Source of the DNA: an uncultured Candidatus Saccharibacteria bacterium
GTDB lineage: Bacteria > Patescibacteriota > Dojkabacteria > J137
Assembly: GCA_964437465.1 (NCBI GenBank)
Contig: CAYTGI010000001.1
Coordinates: 5,614-69,613, forward strand
Direction: 5' to 3'
Length of the DNA stretch: 64,000 bases
Positions 1,668 to 57,603 of this stretch are shown here, piece by piece (the stretch's first letter is position 1; each line of letters starts with the position of its first letter). Under the pieces are notes generated by a model, which saw nothing but the letters and a program-made list of their open reading frames with translations, made no database searches and was not told where the DNA came from. Made by a program: the position numbers and the translations under genes.

Positions 1668-2870
1668 ATGAACGTTTTAGTCAGTACTTTTCATCTAGGT
1701 TTTACTTATATTAATGGCGCCGCATTTTCTCCAAGATTTTTATCTAAAGAACTTTTAAAGAAAGGTCATAAAGTACAAGTCTATTGTACAGGGTATCCTC
1801 AGGTTTATCTTGATCATGAAAAGGATATCCCTGGATATTTCTATAAGGTGACAATGGTTGATTTCTTTTTTAGGAAAAGAAAGCTATATAGCGATATTGC
1901 TAAATTTCAGCCAGACATAATCTACTCAAATGGGATTTCCTTAGCTGATCAAATATGCTCAAATTATGCTAGAAAATATAACATTCCATTTGTATGTACA
2001 GTTAGAACTAGATATAGGGATTTTATAAGAGAAGCTTTACCTTTTGGAAAATATTATCCAAAGTGGTTAGTTACATCAATTGTTAGCATGCTTGTAACCT
2101 GGTTGAATAGGGCTGACATGGTTTTTGCTTTGACTGATAGTTTAAGAGAGTCTCTTGAGGAAGCAGGTGTTAAAAATGTCAAAACTTTAAGTAATGGGGT
2201 TAATCTTGATGAATTTAGAATAAATGATAAAAAAAAGATCTCAGATAGACCAGTTGAATTACTTTATGTTGCTAATATTGAAGAAAGAAAGAATCAAACA
2301 TTTTTACTGGAAGTATCAAAACACTTACCTGAGAATATTAAAATGAATCTTGTTGGTGGAAGAAGTTTTAGTAGCAAATATTACGACGAATTTTCTGAAA
2401 AACTTGAATCATTAAAAAATAAAAATGTTATTTATCATGGTAAGCAAGATAGAAAATCCACTCAAGACTTTTATTACAATTCACATATCTTTGTATCCTC
2501 CACAAAATCTGAAGCGCAAGGAGTAATATTTCTAGAAGCTATAGCAAGTGGAATCCCAATAGTTAAACTACACTCTGAAGCTGTTGAGGGAGTTACAACA
2601 CATAACCGAAACTCAATTCATGTTCCTATGGATGCTGATCCAAAAACTTTTGCCGACGAGGTAATTAAACTAGTAAATAATCCCAAAAAATATAACAAAA
2701 TGGTTGAGAACTGCAAGGTTGATCGAAATAAATTTTCTTGGGAGAGTAGTGCGAATAAGTTTATTGACTATGTTGAGGATGTGTTACTAAACAAAAAAGT
2801 AAGGAAAAGTAGATTAAGAAGAGCAATTGATTTTGTTACAAATAGAATTCCATTTCGTAATAGTAATTAA
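1668..2870 (+). CDS. Glycosyltransferase family 4 (GT-B fold)
   Basis: C-terminal GT1/GT4 motif (EAQGVIFLEAIASGIPIV) and an N-terminal GT4-like domain. Confidence 0.7.
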   Translation: MNVLVSTFHLGFTYINGAAFSPRFLSKELLKKGHKVQVYCTGYPQVYLDHEKDIPGYFYKVTMVDFFFRKRKLYSDIAKFQPDIIYSNGISLADQICSNYARKYNIPFVCTVRTRYRDFIREALPFGKYYPKWLVTSIVSMLVTWLNRADMVFALTDSLRESLEEAGVKNVKTLSNGVNLDEFRINDKKKISDRPVELLYVANIEERKNQTFLLEVSKHLPENIKMNLVGGRSFSSKYYDEFSEKLESLKNKNVIYHGKQDRKSTQDFYYNSHIFVSSTKSEAQGVIFLEAIASGIPIVKLHSEAVEGVTTHNRNSIHVPMDADPKTFADEVIKLVNNPKKYNKMVENCKVDRNKFSWESSANKFIDYVEDVLLNKKVRKSRLRRAIDFVTNRIPFRNSN

Positions 2871-2922
2871 CGCTTGCATCTATAAACTCTTTTTTGTAGA
2901 ATTCCTCAATTATCTTCTTGGA

Positions 2923-3213
2923 ATGAATGATGAGTTGGAATCTGCTCATATAGATAAAATGATTTCTCCTGATGAATATTACGAAGCTTTGTGGAGAGAT
3001 TTTGAAGCTGGAAGGCTTACTAGACAAACTGATGAAATAGAAAAAAGAACTCCGCAAAGACCTTATTACGATAGAACTGATTATAACCTTAGAAATTTAG
3101 TTAGAAAAGAAAGAAGAAACGAATCTTACATTCCTGACCATAGTTCTTCTAGAATGCGGCTAAGAGGTGCACTGCACCAGATGAGAACTAGAGGGTATTC
3201 TTTAGAACAATAA
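2923..3213 (+). CDS. Hypothetical charged protein (about 97 aa; first ATG downstream of the glycosyltransferase stop)
   Basis: Open frame with no recognisable motifs; the ORF track extends it to 2827, overlapping the upstream gene. Confidence 0.3.
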   Translation: MNDELESAHIDKMISPDEYYEALWRDFEAGRLTRQTDEIEKRTPQRPYYDRTDYNLRNLVRKERRNESYIPDHSSSRMRLRGALHQMRTRGYSLEQ

Positions 3214-3240
3214 AAAAGCCCCGTTAGTTAAAACGGGGAC
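3212..3240 (-). terminator. Rho-independent terminator downstream of dnaK (can fold on both strands)
   Basis: Hairpin gccccgtt / aacggggc with a 6-nt loop, followed on the minus strand by a T6 tract; sits between convergent genes. Confidence 0.6.
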
Positions 3241-3261
3241 TTTAGGTGTTACTACTAAATC

Positions 3262-5190
3262 TTACTCTTTTTTATCCTTCTCTTCAATAACTTCCCCTTC
3301 TTCTACCGCTTCATTTTCTTCTTTTTTGGCTTCACTTTTTTCTTCAGTTTCTGGATTGTTTTCACCACCTTCAGCTTCATAAACTTTAGCTCCAACTTCT
3401 TGCATTATCTCCATTAGCTCATTAGAAAGAGTTTTTAACTTTTCCAAATCAGCATCGTCTTTTTCCAATTCATCTTTAATCTCTTTATTCTTATCTTCGA
3501 TTTTCTTCTTATTGTCGTCATCTATCTTTTCTGCATGATCTTTTAGAAGTTTTTCAGCTTGGAAAACATAACTATCAGCATCATTTCTTATTTTTAGTTT
3601 CTCCATCTCTTCCTTATCTTTACTTGCATTCTCTTCAGCTTCTTTTACTAATTTATCGATTTCCTCCTGTTCTAGTTGAGTAGAAGCAGTAATTGTAATC
3701 TCTTGTTCTTTTCCTGTTCCCTTGTCTTTTGCTTTAACATTTAAAATTCCATTCGCATCAATTTTAAAGATTACTTCGAATTGAGGTACACCTCTTGGAG
3801 CTGGTGGGATTCCATCTAATCTAAAAGTTCCTAATACTTTATTGTCCTTAGCTAAAGGTCTTTCTCCTTGAAGAACTTTTACATCAATTGCTGGTTGGTT
3901 ATCAACAGCTGTTGTAAATCTATCCTCAGACTTTTCTGCAGGAATTGTTGTATTTCTAGGGATTAGAACATGCATCTGACCAGCATTAACTTCTAATCCA
4001 AGAGACAACGGAGTAACGTCCAAAAGAGTAATATCATCTACATCAGTATCTCCAGCTAAAACAGCTCCTTGAAGGGCTGCTCCAACCGCAACAACTTCAT
4101 CAGGGTTAACTGAAATATTAGGCTCTTTTCCAAAAAATTCTTTTACCTTACTTTTAACTAAAGGCATTCTTGTCATACCTCCAACCATTACGATCTCATT
4201 TATCTCACCCTTCTCAATATCAGCATCCTTTAAAGCTTGTCTAACTGAATCGAATGTTTTATCTACAAGGTCAGAAACTAGTTTTTCAAAATCTGACTTC
4301 TTTAAAGTCATTCTGAAATGTTTAGGACCTTTTGCGTCAGCTGTAATGTACGGAAGATTAATCTCAGTTTGCTCAGAGTTAGAAAGCGCGATCTTAGCTT
4401 TCTCAGCTGCTTCTTTTAATCTTTGAAGTGCGGCAGGATCTTCTTTTAGATCAATTCCTTGCTCTTTTTTAAATTCTTCTACAAGATGATTGATTAGGGC
4501 CTGATCAAAGTCGTCTCCTCCAAGGTGAGTATCTCCTGAAGTAGATCTAACTTCATAAACTCCATCTCCAATTTCCAAAACAGAAACGTCAAAAGTTCCT
4601 CCTCCTAAATCGTAAACTATAATTGTTTGATCACCTGATTTTTCTAACCCGTAAGCAATAGCCGCTGCAGTAGGCTCGTTAATAATTCTTTTAACGTCTA
4701 ACCCAGCGATTTTTCCTGCATTTTTTGTAGCTTGTCTTTGAGCATCATCAAAGTAAGCAGGAACTGTAATTACTGCCCCTTCTACAGATTCTCCTAGAAA
4801 AGCTTCTGCATCAGCTTTAATTCTAGCTAGCACTTTAGCTGAAATTACTTCAGGAGCTACCCAATCTGAACCGAATTTGATCTCAACTCCTCCTTTCTTA
4901 CTTTCTCTAATTTCAAATGGTAGAAGATCAAGATCTTTTTTTACATCTTCATCAGTAAACTTTCGCCCGATAAGTCTTTTAATAGAGTAGAAAGTTTGTT
5001 CTGGATTAGTAACCATTTGGTTTTTAGCGGTTACTCCTACGATTTCTGATTTATTGTCTACGTCAATAGCAACAACAGAAGGCGTAGTTCTATTTCCTTC
5101 TTTGTTTGTAATAACCTCAGGTTTACCAGCTTGAACGAAAGCAAAGGCTGAATTTGTTGTACCTAGGTCAATTCCGATAATTTTCCCCAT
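3262..5190 (-). CDS. dnaK: Molecular chaperone DnaK (Hsp70)
   Basis: 642 aa; canonical Hsp70 motifs ([26 protein letters not shown]); acidic C-terminal tail. Confidence 0.97.
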
Positions 5191-11370: not shown

Positions 11371-12519
11371 ATGAAGTTAGTATTTAATTCAGGATCTTCA
11401 AGCATTAAAGTAGCATTGTTTAAAGATAAAGAAAGAACGTTTGATCTTCATTTTAAAAACTATTCAGGGGAATCGTTTAGTTTAATAGTAAATAATCAGG
11501 AAGAAGTTGAAATTAATGAGAGTGACTACTCAGACTCATTTAACAAGACAATTGAAATATTGATAAATCATGGAGCTTTAGATTCTAAAGACAATTTAGA
11601 TTTCATAGCTCATAGAGTAGTACATGGTGGAGAAGAATACGATCAACCAGTTGAGATTACGGAAGAAACTATCCAGACGATCGAATCTTTTAACGACTTT
11701 GCTCCACTTCATAATCCGCTTGCTTTAGAAATAATAAAAAAAATTGCTAAGACTGATCCTAATTTGAAGCAATATGCAGTTTTTGATACTGCATTTCATA
11801 CAACCATACCAAAAAAAAATTTCTTATATGGATTACCATATGGATATTATGAAAACATAAAAGTAAGAAAGTTTGGCTTTCATGGAATTTCTTACGAATA
11901 TATTGTAAATAATGTTCCTGACTTCCCTTCTAAAGCGATAATTTGTCATCTAGGTTCTGGTTCAAGTGTTTGTGCTGTTAAGGATAAACAAAGCTTCGCA
12001 ACTTCTTTTGGATTTTCACCTGAAGAAAATTTAATTATGGCAACAAGATCGGGAGAGATAGATTACAGTGCAGTAATGTATCTTAAAAATAAATTAGCTT
12101 TGACAGATAAAGATATAACAACACTTATTAACAAGGAAAGTGGATTGCTAGGTCTTTCTGGATATACAAATAACATGGTTCAGTTGATTGAGGATTATGA
12201 TTCTAATGATAGAGCTAAGCTTGCTATAGACATGTATGTAGATAAAGTAGTTGAGTTTATAAGTAGTTTTTACGTAAAGCTTGGTGGATGTGATTTATTA
12301 GTTTTCACAGGAGGCATTGGAAGTGGTTCGGACTTTGTTAGAAAGAAAATTGGAGAGAAAATAAGAATTATAGGTCTAGGGATAGATGATACAAAAAACA
12401 ATGGCCAAATTAATATCGAAGGAAGTCTCGATATTTCAATAAATGATAATAGAGTACTAGCCGTTAAGACTAATGAAGAGCTTCATATTATCAATCAGGT
12501 AAGTAATACCATTGATTAA
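11371..12519 (+). CDS. ackA: Acetate kinase
   Basis: VFNSGSSSIKVALF, FIAHRVVHGG, KFGFHGISY and HLGSGSSVCAV motifs. Confidence 0.85.
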   Translation: MKLVFNSGSSSIKVALFKDKERTFDLHFKNYSGESFSLIVNNQEEVEINESDYSDSFNKTIEILINHGALDSKDNLDFIAHRVVHGGEEYDQPVEITEETIQTIESFNDFAPLHNPLALEIIKKIAKTDPNLKQYAVFDTAFHTTIPKKNFLYGLPYGYYENIKVRKFGFHGISYEYIVNNVPDFPSKAIICHLGSGSSVCAVKDKQSFATSFGFSPEENLIMATRSGEIDYSAVMYLKNKLALTDKDITTLINKESGLLGLSGYTNNMVQLIEDYDSNDRAKLAIDMYVDKVVEFISSFYVKLGGCDLLVFTGGIGSGSDFVRKKIGEKIRIIGLGIDDTKNNGQINIEGSLDISINDNRVLAVKTNEELHIINQVSNTID

Positions 12520-12570
12520 TCTATAATTTAGGCGTATAATATATAGCTTTTATATAACAATACGCTTGAA

Positions 12571-15264
12571 TTGAAAAAAGATTCAATAATAACAAAATTA
12601 AGTGTTTTCTCTGTAAGGAATTTTAGGCTAACTATTTTAGCCTTCATTTCTATAATTTTATTAGGTAGTATAGCCTATACTAGTTTACTTCCTAGACAAG
12701 GATTTCCTGAATTAGAATTTCCTACAGCTTTTATACAAACAATATATCCTGTTCAGGATGCTGAGCGTGTTGACGATGAAATAACTCTGCCAATAATATC
12801 TGAGCTAAATAGTTTTGAGAGTATTGAATCAGCGGATTCTACATCTTCTAGTAACTTCAGTTTTATTATCATCTCTTTTGAGACCGGTACTAATGTTGAA
12901 GAGGAGGTAGACAAGATTAATGAAGCAATATTATTAGCTGGACTTCCGGAGCAAGTTGAGCCTGAAGTTATTGGATTAAAAGCTAACGCTATTGATGGGG
13001 AGAATGATTTAATTTTAGGAGTTGTAAATGGAAATAATGCGGATTTATTAAAACTGCAAGAAGTCGCTTTGGAAATGACAAACGAGCTTAAAACGTTAGA
13101 TACAGTTCAAAACTCAAATCCAATAAATCAGTTTGAAGAAGTGTTTAATCCAATTACTAACCAATCAGAGCTTACAAAGCTTTCCTTCAATAGATACGGT
13201 GAGAAAAAGAACGGTGAGATTTTAACAAAAGAAACAGTATTGATTGGAGTTCAAAAAGAAGATCAATTTACAACTACGGAACTTTCAGAAGAAGTAAGAA
13301 ACAAAATGGAATCTATAAATGACTCAGAAGAATTTAATGATTTTGAAATAGTTACAATTTATGATGAAGCTGAAGGTTTAGATGAACAGATCTCTTCTTT
13401 GGAAAATAATGCACTTTCGGCACTAATAATTGTTGCAATTACTTTGTTTTTATTTGTTAGTTGGAGAGCATCAATTGTTGCTGTAATCTTTATTCCTACT
13501 GTTATGGCGGCTACATTCCTAACTCTGTTGTTAATTGGAGTTTCTTTGAATGTAATTTCACTTTTTGCACTAATTCTTGTTCTTGGGTTATTAGTTGATG
13601 ATGCAATTGTAATTGTTGAAAGTATAGATTATTACAAAAGAAACGGATTTAAAGGTATTAGCGCTATTAAAGAAGCGATTAATGATGTTGGTAAAGCTGA
13701 CATAATAGGTACAGTAACTACTTTAATGGCATTCTTCCCAATGCTTTTTATAATCGGATTTTTAGGAGAAATTATTAGAGATGTTCCAATTACAGTTATA
13801 GTAACACTTATTTGGTCACTATTTATAGCTTTAACAATTATTCCTCTATTTTCAAATTTTATAATTCCAAGTAGGGATGAGAATCAAAAAAGATCAATTA
13901 TTTACTGGATACTAAACATTTTTAATGAGGTAGTAATTTTCTATGGAAAAATAACTGCATTTATAGTGAGAATCTATACATCAAGATGGTATTTAAACAT
14001 AATAGTTGTTCTTTTTAGCCTTGGTCTTATAGGGGCTGGTGGATACTTTGCATCACAGCTACAGTTTGTTGATTTTCCTGCACAAAAAGATTCAAATTCA
14101 ATCATGGTTAACTTCAGTTTTGATAACGATTTAACTATTTATGAGAAGGAGGAAATTGCAATTTTTGTTGAGGATACTATAATTGAGAATTATGAAGATC
14201 TTGTAGAAGAAATAAAGTATCCTCAAGTTGGAAGAGATTTTACAGGTAGTGATGTTGCAATAATGATGGTTGAGTTAGAATCACTACTAACTAGGTCTGA
14301 GACTTCTGTTGAAATTTCAGAAGACATAACCAAAAAGCTAGGAGAGATTGAAGGTGCAAGTGTAGATGTAGTTTCAAGTTCTAATGGAGGTCCTCCTTCT
14401 CTAGAATATCAATCACAAATTCAGCTTTATGGAAACAATGTAGAAGATTTAGAAAATGCAGCTAATGAAATTGAAGAATTTATATCTAATATTGAATTTG
14501 AAACTGAAGTTGAAGTAGTTGATACAAGAATAAGTAACTTAGATCTAATAGTAAGAAATGACGGTAGAAGATACGTTTTGATAGAATCTAAGCTTGAGGG
14601 TGAGGTTGATGATGCTCAGGTAAGGCTTATTGCTGATGAAGTAAAGAGTGAATTTGATGGGGATAAGTTAGATAGTTTAGGATTGTCAGATGATGCTATT
14701 GGAGATGATAGAGGATTTGCTAGTGAGATATTTGAATCTGTAATTTCAGCAGGAGTAGCTTTACTAGGTTCATTTGTCCTAATTTATCTATTTTTAGTTA
14801 TAACATTTAACTCATTCTCAAGAGCTTTATTGATTATGCTTTCGATTCCGTTTAGTTTTTTTGGCTTATTTGTAGGATTAAATCTTACTAATAACCCAAT
14901 TAGCTTTTTTGTAATAATCGGAATGATTGCTCTTGTAGGAATTGTAGTAAATAATTCTGTAATGTTACTAGATTTTGCTATTCAAGCAAGAAGTGAAGGT
15001 AAGAATATCTCTGAATCAATTGTTGAAGCGGTTAAGCTTAGATTTAGGCCATTGTTAACTACCTCTGCAACAACAATACTAGGTTCAATTCCTCTAGCCT
15101 TAACAGATCCTTTCTGGGAATCATTAGCTTTTGCAATCATCTTTGGGCTACTTTCAAGTACAATTCTAGTAATTACTGCTTTCCCTGCTTACTATGTACT
15201 TTTTGAACAGATTAGAAAGTTTATAAAAGGTTATATCTTTAGAATAAAAGAGTATAGAAACTAG
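12571..15264 (+). CDS. RND-superfamily exporter permease (AcrB/MmpL-like)
   Basis: 897 aa; topology of TM1, a large loop, 5 TM helices, TM7, a second large loop, then 5 TM helices. Confidence 0.7.
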   Translation: MKKDSIITKLSVFSVRNFRLTILAFISIILLGSIAYTSLLPRQGFPELEFPTAFIQTIYPVQDAERVDDEITLPIISELNSFESIESADSTSSSNFSFIIISFETGTNVEEEVDKINEAILLAGLPEQVEPEVIGLKANAIDGENDLILGVVNGNNADLLKLQEVALEMTNELKTLDTVQNSNPINQFEEVFNPITNQSELTKLSFNRYGEKKNGEILTKETVLIGVQKEDQFTTTELSEEVRNKMESINDSEEFNDFEIVTIYDEAEGLDEQISSLENNALSALIIVAITLFLFVSWRASIVAVIFIPTVMAATFLTLLLIGVSLNVISLFALILVLGLLVDDAIVIVESIDYYKRNGFKGISAIKEAINDVGKADIIGTVTTLMAFFPMLFIIGFLGEIIRDVPITVIVTLIWSLFIALTIIPLFSNFIIPSRDENQKRSIIYWILNIFNEVVIFYGKITAFIVRIYTSRWYLNIIVVLFSLGLIGAGGYFASQLQFVDFPAQKDSNSIMVNFSFDNDLTIYEKEEIAIFVEDTIIENYEDLVEEIKYPQVGRDFTGSDVAIMMVELESLLTRSETSVEISEDITKKLGEIEGASVDVVSSSNGGPPSLEYQSQIQLYGNNVEDLENAANEIEEFISNIEFETEVEVVDTRISNLDLIVRNDGRRYVLIESKLEGEVDDAQVRLIADEVKSEFDGDKLDSLGLSDDAIGDDRGFASEIFESVISAGVALLGSFVLIYLFLVITFNSFSRALLIMLSIPFSFFGLFVGLNLTNNPISFFVIIGMIALVGIVVNNSVMLLDFAIQARSEGKNISESIVEAVKLRFRPLLTTSATTILGSIPLALTDPFWESLAFAIIFGLLSSTILVITAFPAYYVLFEQIRKFIKGYIFRIKEYRN

Positions 15265-47406: not shown

Positions 47407-47480
47407 TGGAGCCGGAGGGAATCGAACCCACAACCTCATGAATGCCATCCATGCGCTCTAGCCAATTGAGCTACGGCCCC
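47407..47480 (-). tRNA. tRNA-Ala (anticodon GGC)
   Basis: Manual fold gives a 7-bp acceptor stem with G3:U70, D-arm GCTC/GAGC, anticodon loop AT-GGC-AT and T-loop GGTTCGATTCC; no encoded CCA. Confidence 0.85.
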
Positions 47481-55445: not shown

Positions 55446-55504
55446 TTGGTTATTTTAAAAAGAAAGATATTTAACTATAAATGATTTGGTTTAAAGTTTA
55501 TGAA

Positions 55505-55691
55505 GGAGAGATGGCCGCTAAAGAGATTACATCAGAGCGAAGCGATGATAGTAAGATCTTTGTCCTGCGAAGCTAGTAAAGTAGGAAGTGGTTTAAGGTG
55601 CATCGCCTCTAACATGCTCCCGATTATATCGGGGCGCAGGTTCGCCACAGACATGTGTCGTGTCGCCATGATGAATATCATGGTGAATCCT
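55505..55691 (+). other. tRNA-Ser-like element with a 70-nt insertion in the D-loop, a 41-nt insertion in the T-loop and no 3' acceptor strand (pseudo-tRNA or intron-bearing tRNA remnant)
   Basis: Carries the same blocks as tRNA-Ser at 55956, namely GGAGAGATGGCCG, GTGGTTTAAGGTGCATCG, GCAGGTTCG and AATCCT. The anticodon/variable region is 30 nt long, the same as in the intact gene, but its sequence differs. Confidence 0.45.
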
Positions 55692-55700
55692 ATAACAACA

Positions 55701-55954
55701 ATGTACTATATTTAGCTACTAAGACAAAGAATAAGCAAATCTACACTGGTTATACTTCTAATTTAAGAAGGAGAGTAAAAGAACATAAATCTGTCTAAGT
55801 AAAGTTTACAAGTAAAAGATTACCAGTTGAACTTATTCATTACTAAGCCTATCTACTAGAGACAGATGCAAGAAGAAGAGAAAAATATCTCAAATCAACA
55901 GAAGGAAAGAAGATGCTAAAATTACAAATAAGAGACTTACTCCAAGAAATTTGA
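55701..55954 (+). pseudogene. Decayed small GIY-YIG nuclease gene (about 84 codons spread over three frames)
   Basis: Frames read MYYI / VLYLATKTKNKQIYTGYTSNLRRRVKEHKSV* / VKFTSKRLPVELIHY* / DARRREKYLKSTEGKKMLKLQIRDLLQEI*. Together these match the GIY-YIG core (YxYIL...IYxGxTxNLxxRLxEH, RxPxxLVY) and C-terminus; ends 2 nt before tRNA-Ser. Confidence 0.55.
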
Positions 55955-55955
55955 A

Positions 55956-56042
55956 GGAGAGGTGGCCGAGTGGTTTAAGGCGCATCGTTGGAAACGATGT
56001 TTATGTTTATTCATAACGCAGGTTCGAATCCTGTCCTCTCCG
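55956..56042 (+). tRNA. tRNA-Ser (anticodon GGA), class II with a long variable arm
   Basis: Acceptor GGAGAGG/CCTCTCC, anticodon stem CATCG/CGATG with loop TT-GGA-AA, variable-arm hairpin and T-loop TTCGAAT. Confidence 0.85.
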
Positions 56043-56274
56043 TATCTTTTAAATTTGAATCTTTAGATTCAAATTTGGAAGATGGAGATAGAAATGGTTT
56101 GATCTCACGAAGTGAGTTCGGTGCGAAGCACTGCGCAAATGAACGAAGTGAATGCGCTTACATCCTGTCCTCTTCGCCAGACTTCGCTAAAGCTTCGTCT
56201 GGCTGGAATTGAAACTAACACCAAAATCAATTTGAATGTTAAAGTACTTTTATATTGAATTATAAAATTGTCGG

Positions 56275-57603
56275 ATGTTTGGATTAATAGGATTTTGGTT
56301 GTTTCTTAACTTTCATAGAGATAGTATTTTTCCGCTCAGCCAATCTTCTAGCCAAATTTTGATTGCTATTTATTCTGCTTTTGGATTCTTATTGTTACTA
56401 TTTTTTTTCGTAATCTCTAGGAACTCAACATTAAATTTTGATATATCTAAAAAGTATCAAACGATTTTATTACAAAGTTTTCTTTGGTTAAATTTTTTAA
56501 TTCTTGAATTTTCTATTTACAGATTATGGCAAGCGGAGAGTGAACTGATTCATACTGACAAGTTTTATATTGTCTCTGTAATTCTATTTATTTTAACAAT
56601 ATTATCCTCTATAGTAGTTTCTAATACATCAAGGCTTGGAAGGGTCCGAACAATATATTCTTTTCTATTTTTGGCTTCATTAATGAGCATTTCTATAATG
56701 TATCTAGTACCCGCGTCCGCTAAGCTCGGAGATTTAATTCCTATCATTAATGAAATGATCAGCTCTTTATTTAACGGTGAAAATATTTATCAATATTACT
56801 TGCTAGATAATGGAGTAGCTACTCAAGCTGTTCGGCAGCCTGGCAATATCTTATTCTATATACCATTTCAACTATTAGGTATTGATATAAGGTTTGCAAA
56901 TATATTTTATTTCTCACTAACAATATTTTTATTAGTTAATATTTACCAAAAAGAGATTCAACATAATTTTGTTGGTTACTTTAGTATACTTTTATTAATT
57001 TTCTTCCCATATAGAATTTTTAGAACAGATCTATACGATGTACCATATTGGTTTATATTTGTTCTATTTATATATTTTTTTAAAAGAAAAAAAGATTTAA
57101 TAGCTCCTATAGTCTGGGGTTTCAGTATTTTTACTCAGGTTTGGAGCTGGATTTTCACACCAATACTTTTTATTTACTTATATAAAAAAAGAGGAATTAA
57201 AAATACAGCAAGATTCATAGCTATTTCAGGGATTACAGCTTTAGTATTATTCCTACCGTTTGTATTTAATAATATAGATAATTACTACGAGCATGTTTTT
57301 GGTTTTTACAATAGCTCAAGAGAAGCAGGAATAGAATTTGGTTCTAGCATCCACTTAAGTCAAGTCATACAGTTTTTATTAGATTCAAGCATTTTCCCTT
57401 TTCTACAGTTGTTTCAAATGCTAACAATTTTCATTATATTTTTGTTCTTAAAAAAAAATTTACCGAACCTTTTATTTAGTCTAGGGTTAGCTTTTTTTGC
57501 ATTTATGAGTCTAAATACTCATACTTGGCCATATATGTACTTGCTCATTTTCTTGGCTATGATTTTTATTATATTTGAAGAAGGAAGGAGATCTAACACT
57601 TAA
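56275..57603 (+). CDS. Polytopic membrane protein (about 12 TM helices), GT-C-like glycosyltransferase or DUF2029-like candidate
   Basis: 442 aa dominated by hydrophobic helices; identification is by topology only. Confidence 0.4.
   Translation: MFGLIGFWLFLNFHRDSIFPLSQSSSQILIAIYSAFGFLLLLFFFVISRNSTLNFDISKKYQTILLQSFLWLNFLILEFSIYRLWQAESELIHTDKFYIVSVILFILTILSSIVVSNTSRLGRVRTIYSFLFLASLMSISIMYLVPASAKLGDLIPIINEMISSLFNGENIYQYYLLDNGVATQAVRQPGNILFYIPFQLLGIDIRFANIFYFSLTIFLLVNIYQKEIQHNFVGYFSILLLIFFPYRIFRTDLYDVPYWFIFVLFIYFFKRKKDLIAPIVWGFSIFTQVWSWIFTPILFIYLYKKRGIKNTARFIAISGITALVLFLPFVFNNIDNYYEHVFGFYNSSREAGIEFGSSIHLSQVIQFLLDSSIFPFLQLFQMLTIFIIFLFLKKNLPNLLFSLGLAFFAFMSLNTHTWPYMYLLIFLAMIFIIFEEGRRSNT

Follow-up and report, generated by a model that had tools for sequence, protein, structure and literature searches.

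T4 SegB is a free-standing GIY-YIG homing endonuclease encoded in a cluster of transfer RNA (tRNA) genes (PMC2330249). It recognizes a 27-bp asymmetric site that lies apart from the cleavage points and contains the T-loop motif GGTTCRANTCC, cuts many tRNA genes to leave 2-nucleotide (nt) 3' overhangs, and homes together with flanking tRNA genes (PMC2330249). SegB is the nearest precedent for the locus described here, which lies in a 64-kb stretch of contig CAYTGI010000001.1 (the window, meaning the whole 64,000 nt analyzed) and in which a decayed GIY-YIG gene is found between a disabled and an intact copy of a tRNA-Ser gene. We consider it probable, though well short of certain, that the locus is the decayed remnant of a selfish GIY-YIG/tRNA cassette that recurs in the tRNA transcription units of uncultured bacteria. 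The likeness to SegB lies in the GIY-YIG domain, the placement of the gene among tRNA genes, and the T-loop motif. SegB is a phage protein, whereas the cassette proteins are chromosomally encoded catalytic domains of about 85 amino acids (aa), and the GIY-YIG alignment found no relatives when scanned against the viral contigs of IMG/VR. SegB loci have neither duplicated partial tRNAs nor hairpin modules, and SegB cuts near the tRNA 3' end, whereas the tRNA copies of the cassettes are broken and carry inserts in the T-, anticodon, or D-loop.

The UPF0213/YhbQ-YazA/Slx1 lineage of small single-domain GIY-YIG (URI) nucleases includes the nearest solved structures, the UPF0213 proteins BH0048 (1ZG2, E=2.7e-12) and EF2693 (1YWL, E=3.2e-11), as found with the profile of alignment A2. 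Slx1 cleaves branched DNA and stem-loops, an activity that would suit a protein linked to hairpins able to form cruciforms. It differs from the single-domain cassette proteins in its C-terminal zinc finger and its dependence on Slx4. We know of no report of YhbQ or YazA being tRNA-linked or mobile. YhbQ and YazA have been grouped with Slx1, a structure-selective nuclease, and YhbQ-type proteins are encoded by chromosomal genes in model bacteria (PMC7017083).

Bacterial tRNA genes, including those of Patescibacteria, can carry group I introns with homing endonuclease genes; the survey that describes them reports no GIY-YIG (0 occurrences of the term) (PMC13011429). Like these introns, the cassette is a candidate selfish nuclease gene inside a Patescibacteria tRNA gene whose function is preserved. 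Unlike them, it has no Rfam intron match and would keep tRNA function by DNA duplication, not by splicing. Tyrosine integrases, as Williams is said to have set out in 2002, insert into tRNA genes, leaving attL and attR with a duplicated segment and a crossover in the anticodon or T-loop. The cassette shares with them the tRNA target, the sublocations, and an intact tRNA regenerated by a duplicated segment; in contrast, it has no integrase, its cargo is a single 85-aa nuclease gene, it usually duplicates the 5' part of the tRNA, and one junction carries a conserved hairpin insert. Small mobile hairpins are represented by the double-hairpin elements of chytrid mitochondrial DNA, the repetitive hairpins of sponge mitochondrial DNA, and bacterial palindromes of the repetitive extragenic palindromic or miniature inverted-repeat transposable element type. 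As described, they are like the cassette modules in being short GC-rich units of one or two hairpins, in tolerated positions of structured-RNA genes and spacers and in either orientation, whereas the cassette modules are tied to one nuclease family and to disabled tRNA loop positions beside CG.

The tRNA-Ser(GGA) locus and its GIY-YIG pseudogene

The features of the locus are listed in Table 1. ARAGORN, Rfam, alignment, and direct repeats placed its components where the initial annotation, made from the sequence alone, had put them. The intact tRNA-Ser was among these; it is called by ARAGORN, scores 60.7 bits with the Rfam tRNA model, and has no encoded CCA.

Table 1. Coordinates of the features at the tRNA-Ser(GGA) locus, numbered from the first letter of the window.
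Feature	Coordinates	Strand	Evidence
Start of 5' copy: 4 nt of flank (TGAA) and tRNA positions 1-13	55501..55517	+	17-nt direct repeat, 16/17 vs 55952-55968
D-loop insert: two hairpin units, 30-nt internal repeat, GC-GAA-GC in each	55518..55586	+	Alignment, DNA and RNA folds
Copied tRNA positions 14-32: 3' part of the D-loop, D-stem, 5' strand of the anticodon stem	55587..55605	+	19-nt repeat, 18/19 vs 55969-55987
Divergent 29-nt segment in place of anticodon loop and variable arm	55606..55634	+	Sequence, fold
T-stem 5' strand and TTCG of T-loop	55635..55644	+	10/10 vs 56017-56026
Diverged double hairpin in T-loop, between TTCG and AATCC: CCACAGACATGTGTCGTG-T-CG-CCATGATGAATATCATGG-TG	55645..55685	+	Covariance model R1, 55643-55685
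AATCCT, T-loop 3' part; copy ends here	55686..55691	+	Alignment; class I loci share layout
GIY-YIG pseudogene, YhbQ/Slx1-like, ~85 aa	55701..55954	+	Translations; PF01541; intact homologues; tblastn vs family consensus
Intact tRNA-Ser(GGA)	55956..56042	+	ARAGORN; Rfam 60.7 bits; near-identical to tRNA at syntenic locus L093
AT-rich palindromic hairpin, 18 bp, directly 3' of tRNA-Ser	56044..56083	+	Inverted repeat I1; DNA fold z-score -5.1
Disabled 3' fragment: GAGTTCG, 41-nt insert 56121-56161, ATCCTGTCCTCTTCG	56114..56176	+	Repeat D6, 14/15
CC..GG hairpin module CCAGACTTCGCTAAAGCTTCGTCTGG, right after discriminator base of 3' fragment	56177..56202	+	Fold; alignment with L035, L030

The proposed decayed GIY-YIG gene was upheld by a profile check of its conceptual translation. 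With its two TAA stops masked, the translation scored 46.7 bits with Pfam PF01541 (cutoff 22.6, E=3.9e-12), matching profile positions 3-74 of 78; over residues 11-84, its identity to the family consensus is 77%. Four lesions were found. Codon 5 is a TAG (55713-55715), the frame shifts near 55722-55729, and TAA codons stand at 55796-55798 and 55844-55846. The main frame reads ...VLYLATKTKNKQIYTGYTSNLRRRVKEHKSV, stop, VKFTSKRLPVELIHY, stop, AYLLETDARRREKYLKSTEGKKMLKLQIRDLLQEI, stop, whereas the ATG at 55701 opens a different frame that encodes MYYI and a stop. Comparison with the family consensus, MxYVYILLLNNxQLYTG, gives MYYIYLL as the ancestral start, with the frameshift about 20 nt past the TAG. 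Because of the TAG, the frameshift, and the two in-frame TAA codons, the gene is a pseudogene. Recoding of TAA and TAG was considered for the in-frame stops and dropped, since there is a frameshift as well and a single substitution separates each stop from the consensus codon (Y, K, and E). The terminal TGA of the pseudogene leaves a gap of 1 nt before the tRNA-Ser.

A search with the repaired protein yielded 257 homologues, the best at 60-76% identity, which are 76-143 aa long and have PF01541 as their sole domain. Intact homologues of about 85 aa occur in Patescibacteria, Lentisphaerota, Kiritimatiellia, Cloacimonadota, Omnitrophota, and other metagenome-assembled genomes (MAGs); the best GIY-YIG match in the species-representative genome collection, which lacks the window genome, is 72% identical to the window protein. 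The family alignment has 24 invariant columns, including Y15, T16, G17, R25, H29, E49, E61, and E68. TIGR01453 of NCBIfam, which describes group I intron GIY-YIG endonucleases, scored 17.5-18.3 bits against a cutoff of 56.05, and over about the first 33 profile positions only. NCBIfam, PADLOC, and PHROGs gave nothing beyond weak partial matches to the common GIY motif.

Upstream of the pseudogene, 55505-55691 repeats four blocks of the tRNA-Ser in tRNA order, in agreement with the tRNA-like copy first described. They are TGAAGGAGAG[A/G]TGGCCG (16/17), AGTGGTTTAAGG[T/C]GCATCG (18/19), CGCAGGTTCG (10/10), and AATCCT. As had been noticed, no 3' acceptor strand follows the AATCCT; in addition, the anticodon arm is unpaired. 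This interval was called neither by ARAGORN nor by any Rfam family, even at E<=10. The G+C content of the copy region is 46%, against a background of about 29% in this genome, and its RNA fold has a z-score of -3.6 against shuffled sequences. The D-loop insert, first given as 70 nt, is present, with a length that is ambiguous by 1 nt (69-70); its internal repeat pairs 55537-55556 with 55567-55586. Hairpins are likewise found in the D-loop of disabled copies at other loci (L001, L003, L016, L027, L037, and L078, introduced below). The region of the anticodon and variable arm diverges at equal length, as reported, but the segment measures 29 nt, not 30 nt, and contains a GC-rich hairpin, CCCGATTATATCGGG, at 55619-55633. 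From its sequence we suspect that this is a further hairpin module and not a tRNA variable arm; it appears to resemble CC..GG modules such as CCCCGATATCCATCGGGG of L026.

The copy of the tRNA 3' end downstream of the tRNA-Ser was also recovered, ATCCTGTCCTCTTCG at 56162-56176 corresponding to the T-loop 3' part and the 3' strands of the T-stem and acceptor (14/15 against the tRNA-Ser 3' end), but the GAGTTCG and the 41-nt insert that precede it had been missed. The 3' fragment lies about 120 bp from the tRNA-Ser, and the repeats are 134 nt apart. By DNA folding, the insert at 56121-56161 is composed of C-GAA-G mini-hairpins. It gave no match to covariance model R1, described below; its position and length suggest homology to the double hairpin.

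In the window, then, the nuclease ORF (open reading frame) ends within 15 nt of a same-strand tRNA, and a loop-broken partial copy of that tRNA lies on its other side. We would annotate one functional tRNA-Ser, one GIY-YIG pseudogene, and two disabled tRNA fragments, which should be called neither tRNAs nor introns. A 71-aa ORF with an ATG start (55500-55715) spans the entire tRNA-like copy; it was rejected as a real gene, being most likely an artefact of a GC-rich, stop-poor region. The recurrence of the CGAAG motif was also confirmed, with 8 of the 61 sites in the window falling in the 660 bp from 55538 to 56197, two of them making C-GAA-G mini-hairpins. Dense runs of GCGAAG/CTTCGC palindromes, which resemble this enrichment, flank tRNA-Ser and cassette loci elsewhere (L075 at about 2865-2935, L042 at about 2800-2930, and L002 at 2820-2960).

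Recurrence at other tRNA genes

One genome per GTDB species was scanned for relatives of the window gene. The scan found 222 relatives, and the best 80 were examined, with loci labelled L001 and so on. At 45 of the 80, the ORF ends between -10 and +13 nt from a same-strand tRNA; at 14 further loci, the ATG is preceded by a tRNA whose end lies 0-54 nt away, which brings the abutting loci to 59/80. The partner tRNAs are of at least 12 types, among them Gln, four Ser isoacceptors, several Arg, Tyr, Lys, Pro, and Ala. Several ORFs of the family have no stop of their own and terminate within the tRNA, and gene callers therefore extend such ORFs into tRNAs. Database protein P0009, for example, has the C-terminal tail ...MERCPSGLRSRS, and tails of this kind look like a translated adjacent tRNA gene.

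The first three contexts read all showed a hairpin-bearing partial tRNA copy, the ORF, and an intact tRNA-Gln 1-6 nt past the stop. In the loci of this layout, termed class I, an exact copy of the locus's own tRNA precedes the ATG, with matches of 37-72 nt that run from about the 5' end of the tRNA to a loop; in most loci the identity reaches 0-12 nt 5' of tRNA position 1. The copy usually extends to ...GGTTCG of the T-loop, and to ...TCG of the anticodon loop for tRNA-Ser(CGA) and tRNA-Pro(CGG). The insert is followed by 5-19 nt of tRNA matching the local T-loop variant (AATCC, ATTCC, or AGTCC) and, 5-50 nt later, by the ATG. Class II loci are the mirror image: the intact tRNA comes first and is followed by an ORF that enters ..GGTTCG at its 3' end, after which come the double hairpin and the tRNA 3' part. 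Disabled pieces lie on both sides of the intact tRNA, as in the window, at L026, L058, L067, L017, and L034, and the right-end layout of these loci matches that of the window's 3' fragment. Some loci carry tandem arrays, with three units at a 394-bp period in L010 and two units in L030. The L010 array (2404-3610) consists of three perfect units of tRNA-Gln 5' part, double hairpin, and GIY-YIG ORF before one intact tRNA-Gln, and identity extends 409 nt upstream of the last copy. By its sequence, we read L010 as a recent array expansion.

The literature that was searched contained no account of small GIY-YIG genes abutting tRNAs, or of the double hairpin, although an existing one may have been missed; the cassette is widespread and apparently undescribed. 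Small genes routinely annotated without comment as "GIY-YIG nuclease family protein" in the Candidate Phyla Radiation (CPR) and other uncultured bacteria form at least two tRNA-locked subfamilies, each with a stereotyped architecture and conserved, covarying hairpin modules.

The second subfamily was found at the same tRNA as in the window. Two loci in relatives, L092 and L093, have RarA proteins 74-80% identical to that of the window, with partial synteny. L093, from a Dojkabacteria genome, has the gene order of the window: RarA, CBU_0592, HTH_25, OGG, a hypothetical gene, GIY-YIG, and tRNA-Ser(GGA). Its GIY-YIG gene is intact, encodes 82 aa, and is 40% identical to that of the window; in its upstream copy, which comprises tRNA positions 1-35, the break falls in the anticodon loop, at a different hairpin of 36 nt, CCCGCCTGCAACGCTATGCGTAGCATTGCGGGCAGG. 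In L092, which has the closest RarA (80%), the tRNA-Ser(GGA) follows the HTH_25 gene without a cassette. The comparison of related genomes proposed in the initial annotation thus gave what appear to be three states of an orthologous tRNA-Ser: empty (L092), subfamily 2 (L093), and decayed subfamily 1 (the window). The window tRNA-Ser is nearly identical to that of L093, which has a different cassette, and is therefore native; a cargo tRNA carried by the cassette was dropped for the same reason.

A metagenome scan with the L093 protein found more than 414 relatives. Among the best 80 of these, a tRNA lies within 20 nt past the stop in 42/80 metagenome loci, the tRNA types being Gln, Leu, Asn, His, Lys, Met, Ile, Val, and Thr. 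The upstream copy of this subfamily consists of tRNA positions 1 to 10-20, a hairpin, about 9 nt of tRNA, and the ATG. On the ORF strand, the hairpin occurs in both orientations (38 vs 16), which favours modules acting at the DNA level over a strand-specific RNA.

These distributions bear on whether the protein could instead serve the host, in housekeeping (repair of tRNA or DNA, for instance) or in defence, and be co-transcribed with tRNAs for reasons of regulation, the partial copies being by-products of local recombination. The very strong conservation of the protein, the chromosomal YhbQ-type genes of model bacteria (PMC7017083), and the absence of the family from the IMG/VR contigs scanned would all suit such a factor. 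Its distribution among phyla, however, is patchy despite identities of 60-76%, the partner tRNA varies by locus, units occur in tandem, and presence, absence, and subfamily replacement all appear to occur at one orthologous tRNA. The window copy is a pseudogene, and no defence family was matched beyond the common GIY motif. We regard a host factor as unlikely.

The mobile-element scar offered as an alternative in the initial annotation survives in part. A GIY-YIG remnant with partial tRNA duplications is present and is one member of a large recurrent family, but the label of attL/attR type is too narrow, with no integrase in the window, a spacing of about 120 bp, and a family that usually duplicates the 5' tRNA part. 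In its strict form, that alternative would make the locus an integrase-type scar of an island lost from the tRNA-Ser 3' end, with the GIY-YIG gene and the 5' copy as unrelated debris. The 15-nt repeat of the tRNA 3' end, 134 nt downstream, is what such a scar would leave, and L093 has an island with a serine recombinase, HamA, and a helicase about 280 bp downstream of the same tRNA-Ser. There is, however, no recombinase between or beside the repeats, and the GAGTTCG with its 41-nt insert before the 3' fragment has the right-end layout of cassettes (L026, L058, and L067). The 5' copy, the T-loop double hairpin, and the abutment of ORF and tRNA are all features of the cassette family. We therefore hold a lost integrase island to be very unlikely.

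The L093 island (11596-14841) encodes a large serine recombinase (Resolvase/Recombinase/Zn-ribbon), HamA, and a ResIII/DEAD helicase; HamA and the helicase are read as a Hachiman-type defence pair. At its position, the window has a gene for a 442-aa protein without a Pfam match, and the same tRNA is thus also a hotspot for a conventional island. Exact look-ups of this protein and of a database entry 100% identical to it led to no contig, a metagenome scan with it found nothing, and its homologues (33-41% identity) are not syntenic.

Hairpin modules of the disabled copies

The insert of class I and II loci has a 40-nt consensus, CC-NN-GTC-ATYC-GAC-NN-GG / CG / CC-NN-GTC-GRAT-GAC-NN-GG / CG, and its usual insertion point is in the T-loop between TTCG and AATCC. 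Base pairs vary on both sides at 11 of the 14 stem positions and controls in which the alignment was slid collapse; 99.4% of cells are paired, a figure inflated because the outer 5 bp of each hairpin were used in selecting sequences for alignment A3. Pairing of the first unit (A) with the second (B) into one long hairpin was rejected, as variable stem positions covary within and not between hairpins. The loops, ATYC in A and GRAT in B, are reverse complements of each other, and the double hairpin is consequently alike on both strands.

Covariance model R1 was built from 37 double hairpins of other genomes, with the window excluded. It matched 74 of 83 loci, always beside the ORF, mostly at more than 40 bits and at 27.5 bits in the weakest case; solo copies were matched too, and one in L042, at 4073, lies away from any ORF. 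In the 64-kb window, R1 gave a single match, at 55643-55685 (28.8 bits, E=2e-4). As the model was blind to the window, this identifies the 41-nt T-loop insert at 55645-55685, which alignment also supports as first described, as a diverged member of the double-hairpin family. Its score below most family matches is consistent with decay. Extra single hairpins are found in the D-loop or anticodon loop of disabled copies at L003, L016, L027, L037, L060, and L083, a pattern that the D-loop insert of the window fits. Rfam searches of the window locus (E<=10) and of four canonical loci (E<=0.01) returned tRNAs and chance matches only.

The dinucleotides flanking the two hairpins follow the form xy-[A]-y'x'-[B]-xy, which is CG/CG/CG in 46 of 53 strict instances. 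Clean flanks other than CG (CT/AG/CT, TG/CA/TG, and CA/TG/CA) were found in L001, L002, and L014; in these cases xy belongs to the local tRNA sequence, with the reverse complement of xy as the middle dinucleotide. Exceptions to the rule differ by single transitions. By analogy with SegB, a 2-nt flanking repeat would be the expected trace of a 2-nt staggered cut. The templated middle dinucleotide might come from the insertion chemistry or from later template switching that perfects the palindrome.

The initial annotation had remarked that the inserts sit at positions resembling those of archaeal non-canonical introns, so that 55505-55691 would be an intron-bearing gene from which a second tRNA is spliced. 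The inserts do lie exactly in loop positions and fold as hairpins, and at L026 (2040-2156) a full-length copy with the double hairpin scores 30.4 bits as a tRNA. This reading did not hold, however. The window copy lacks a 3' acceptor strand and so could not yield a tRNA, its anticodon arm is unpaired, an intact tRNA-Ser is adjacent, and the host is a bacterium of the CPR. The same inserts are present in truncated tRNA copies of dozens of genomes, and the T-loop insert belongs to a strand-symmetric hairpin family spread across phyla; with the sister-subfamily hairpin in either orientation, this indicates modules at the DNA level. No Rfam intron family was detected at the locus even at E<=10, although no search was aimed at the bulge-helix-bulge motif. 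We give the intron reading almost no credence. Joining of the 5' copy and the 3' fragment into a split or trans-spliced tRNA was likewise rejected, since an intact tRNA is present and the acceptor changes of the two pieces are not compensatory. The L026 copy, a tRNA-Ser with a 40-nt T-loop double hairpin, passes the Rfam gathering score, and copies of this type could be mis-annotated as intron-bearing tRNAs.

A functional structured RNA deserves somewhat more attention, either a tRNA-mimic leader or trailer controlling how the GIY-YIG mRNA is processed, stabilized, or translated, or a guide for the nuclease. The hairpin-bearing region is GC-rich in an AT-rich genome and folds well against shuffles, the stems covary strongly, the hairpins are always within tens of nt of the ORF, and the ORF is embedded in a tRNA transcription unit. 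But class I loci have the double hairpin 5' of the ORF and class II loci have it over the ORF 3' end, it scores equally on both strands, and the hairpin of subfamily 2 occurs in both orientations. The number and position of hairpins vary, and solo copies such as that of L042 stand apart from ORFs. In the window the ORF is dead, so any such function would be gone. We judge an RNA function unlikely, and DNA-level modules of a selfish cassette remain our preferred account of the hairpins.

The hairpin that follows the window's 3' fragment, CGCCAGACTTCGCT...GCTTCGTCTGGC (56176-56203, CCAGAC...GTCTGG), aligns with L035 (2835-2880) and L030 (3205-3250), where the aligned stretches lie directly after intact tRNA-Ser(CGA) genes of unrelated MAGs. 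It opens with CCA after the discriminator base, and its sequence suggests that it may be another CC...GG module, one that targets the tRNA 3' end. In L058 (575-639), a hairpin is nested in the first hairpin of the double hairpin (ccctgtcacccgagtcatacgacggggtaaattcgacaggg), and modules can thus insert into one another.

Proposed mechanism and surroundings of the locus

The anatomy of the cassette is stereotyped. A domain-only GIY-YIG gene of the YhbQ/YazA/Slx1 lineage, encoding about 85 aa, lies between a disabled and an intact tRNA copy. On one side is a partial copy of the local tRNA whose loop-coding positions are interrupted by GC-rich CC...GG modules, the 40-nt double hairpin being the signature; on the other is an intact copy beginning 0-13 nt past the nuclease stop. 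The window would represent a decayed state of this arrangement, with a dead nuclease gene, a drifted double hairpin, extra hairpins in the 5' copy, and a disabled 3' piece downstream.

We rate the cassette, from its sequence features, as a free-standing GIY-YIG element of the homing type that targets tRNA genes; nuclease-driven homing with rescue by target duplication appears the most likely mechanism. The nuclease would cut tRNA genes in loop-coding DNA beside CG with the 2-nt stagger of GIY-YIG enzymes, and the break would be repaired from a filled allele, with conserved tRNA sequence serving as homology arms. Partial duplication of the tRNA would preserve one functional gene and make insertion into an essential gene tolerable. 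The hairpin modules may destroy the target in the spare copy, may be substrates of a structure-specific nuclease, or both. Expression could be achieved by read-through from the tRNA promoter, and the mRNA 3' end could be set by RNase P at the intact tRNA. The tandem arrays, the intact subfamily 2 cassette of L093, and the empty site of L092 may be taken as signs of mobility.

Several points weigh against this account, besides the selection effect on the pairing figure. The cassette protein is a catalytic domain alone, without a DNA-binding domain, unlike proven GIY-YIG homing endonucleases; SegB has a separate DNA-binding region. An intact and presumably cleavable tRNA persists in every filled locus, so simple site disruption cannot explain immunity. 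In L067 the flanks are CG, whereas the local T-loop has CA (TTCAATT); the 2-nt repeat is hence not always a true target-site duplication, and flanks can travel with hairpins. In a weakly resolved tree of these 80-aa proteins, the window ORF falls inside a tRNA-Gln clade though it is located at a tRNA-Ser. The tree suggests tRNA-type switches of this kind, and plain homing would leave them unexplained in the absence of chimeric tRNAs.

More tentatively, and with the odds in our opinion against it, the cassette may represent a new class of autonomous mobile element, in which a domain-only YhbQ/Slx1-type nuclease invades tRNA genes where they encode the D-, anticodon, or T-loop, beside CG, duplicates part of its target and so survives in an essential gene, and mobilizes passengers. 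The 18-36-nt CC...GG modules would then be non-autonomous passengers; cutting and rejoining through 2-nt overhangs could move them and would account for the xy-hairpin-y'x'-hairpin-xy rule of the flanks. Such a class, if real, would transpose or home without a transposase, integrase, reverse transcriptase, or ribozyme. If the cassettes are selfish elements at all, a spare target copy, and not a self-splicing intron, would be what lets a homing element colonize essential single-copy genes in streamlined genomes. The cassettes would then also account for many tRNA-like pseudogenes and for odd, extended ORFs running into tRNAs, and a very small nuclease, possibly specific for structures or for tRNA genes, would be open to direct testing in vitro.

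The host is a Dojkabacteria-like bacterium of the CPR, as the RarA protein encoded in the window is 73-74% identical to Candidatus Dojkabacteria proteins. The sole other tRNA in the window is a tRNA-Ala(GGC) at 47407-47480 on the minus strand, in whose vicinity neither a GIY-YIG relic nor a match to the double-hairpin model was found. The AT-rich palindrome that directly follows the tRNA-Ser is nearly perfect (ATCTTTTAAATTTGAATC TTTA GATTCAAATTTGGAAGAT). It has no downstream T-run and is therefore not a canonical terminator; a terminator-like function would be a guess.

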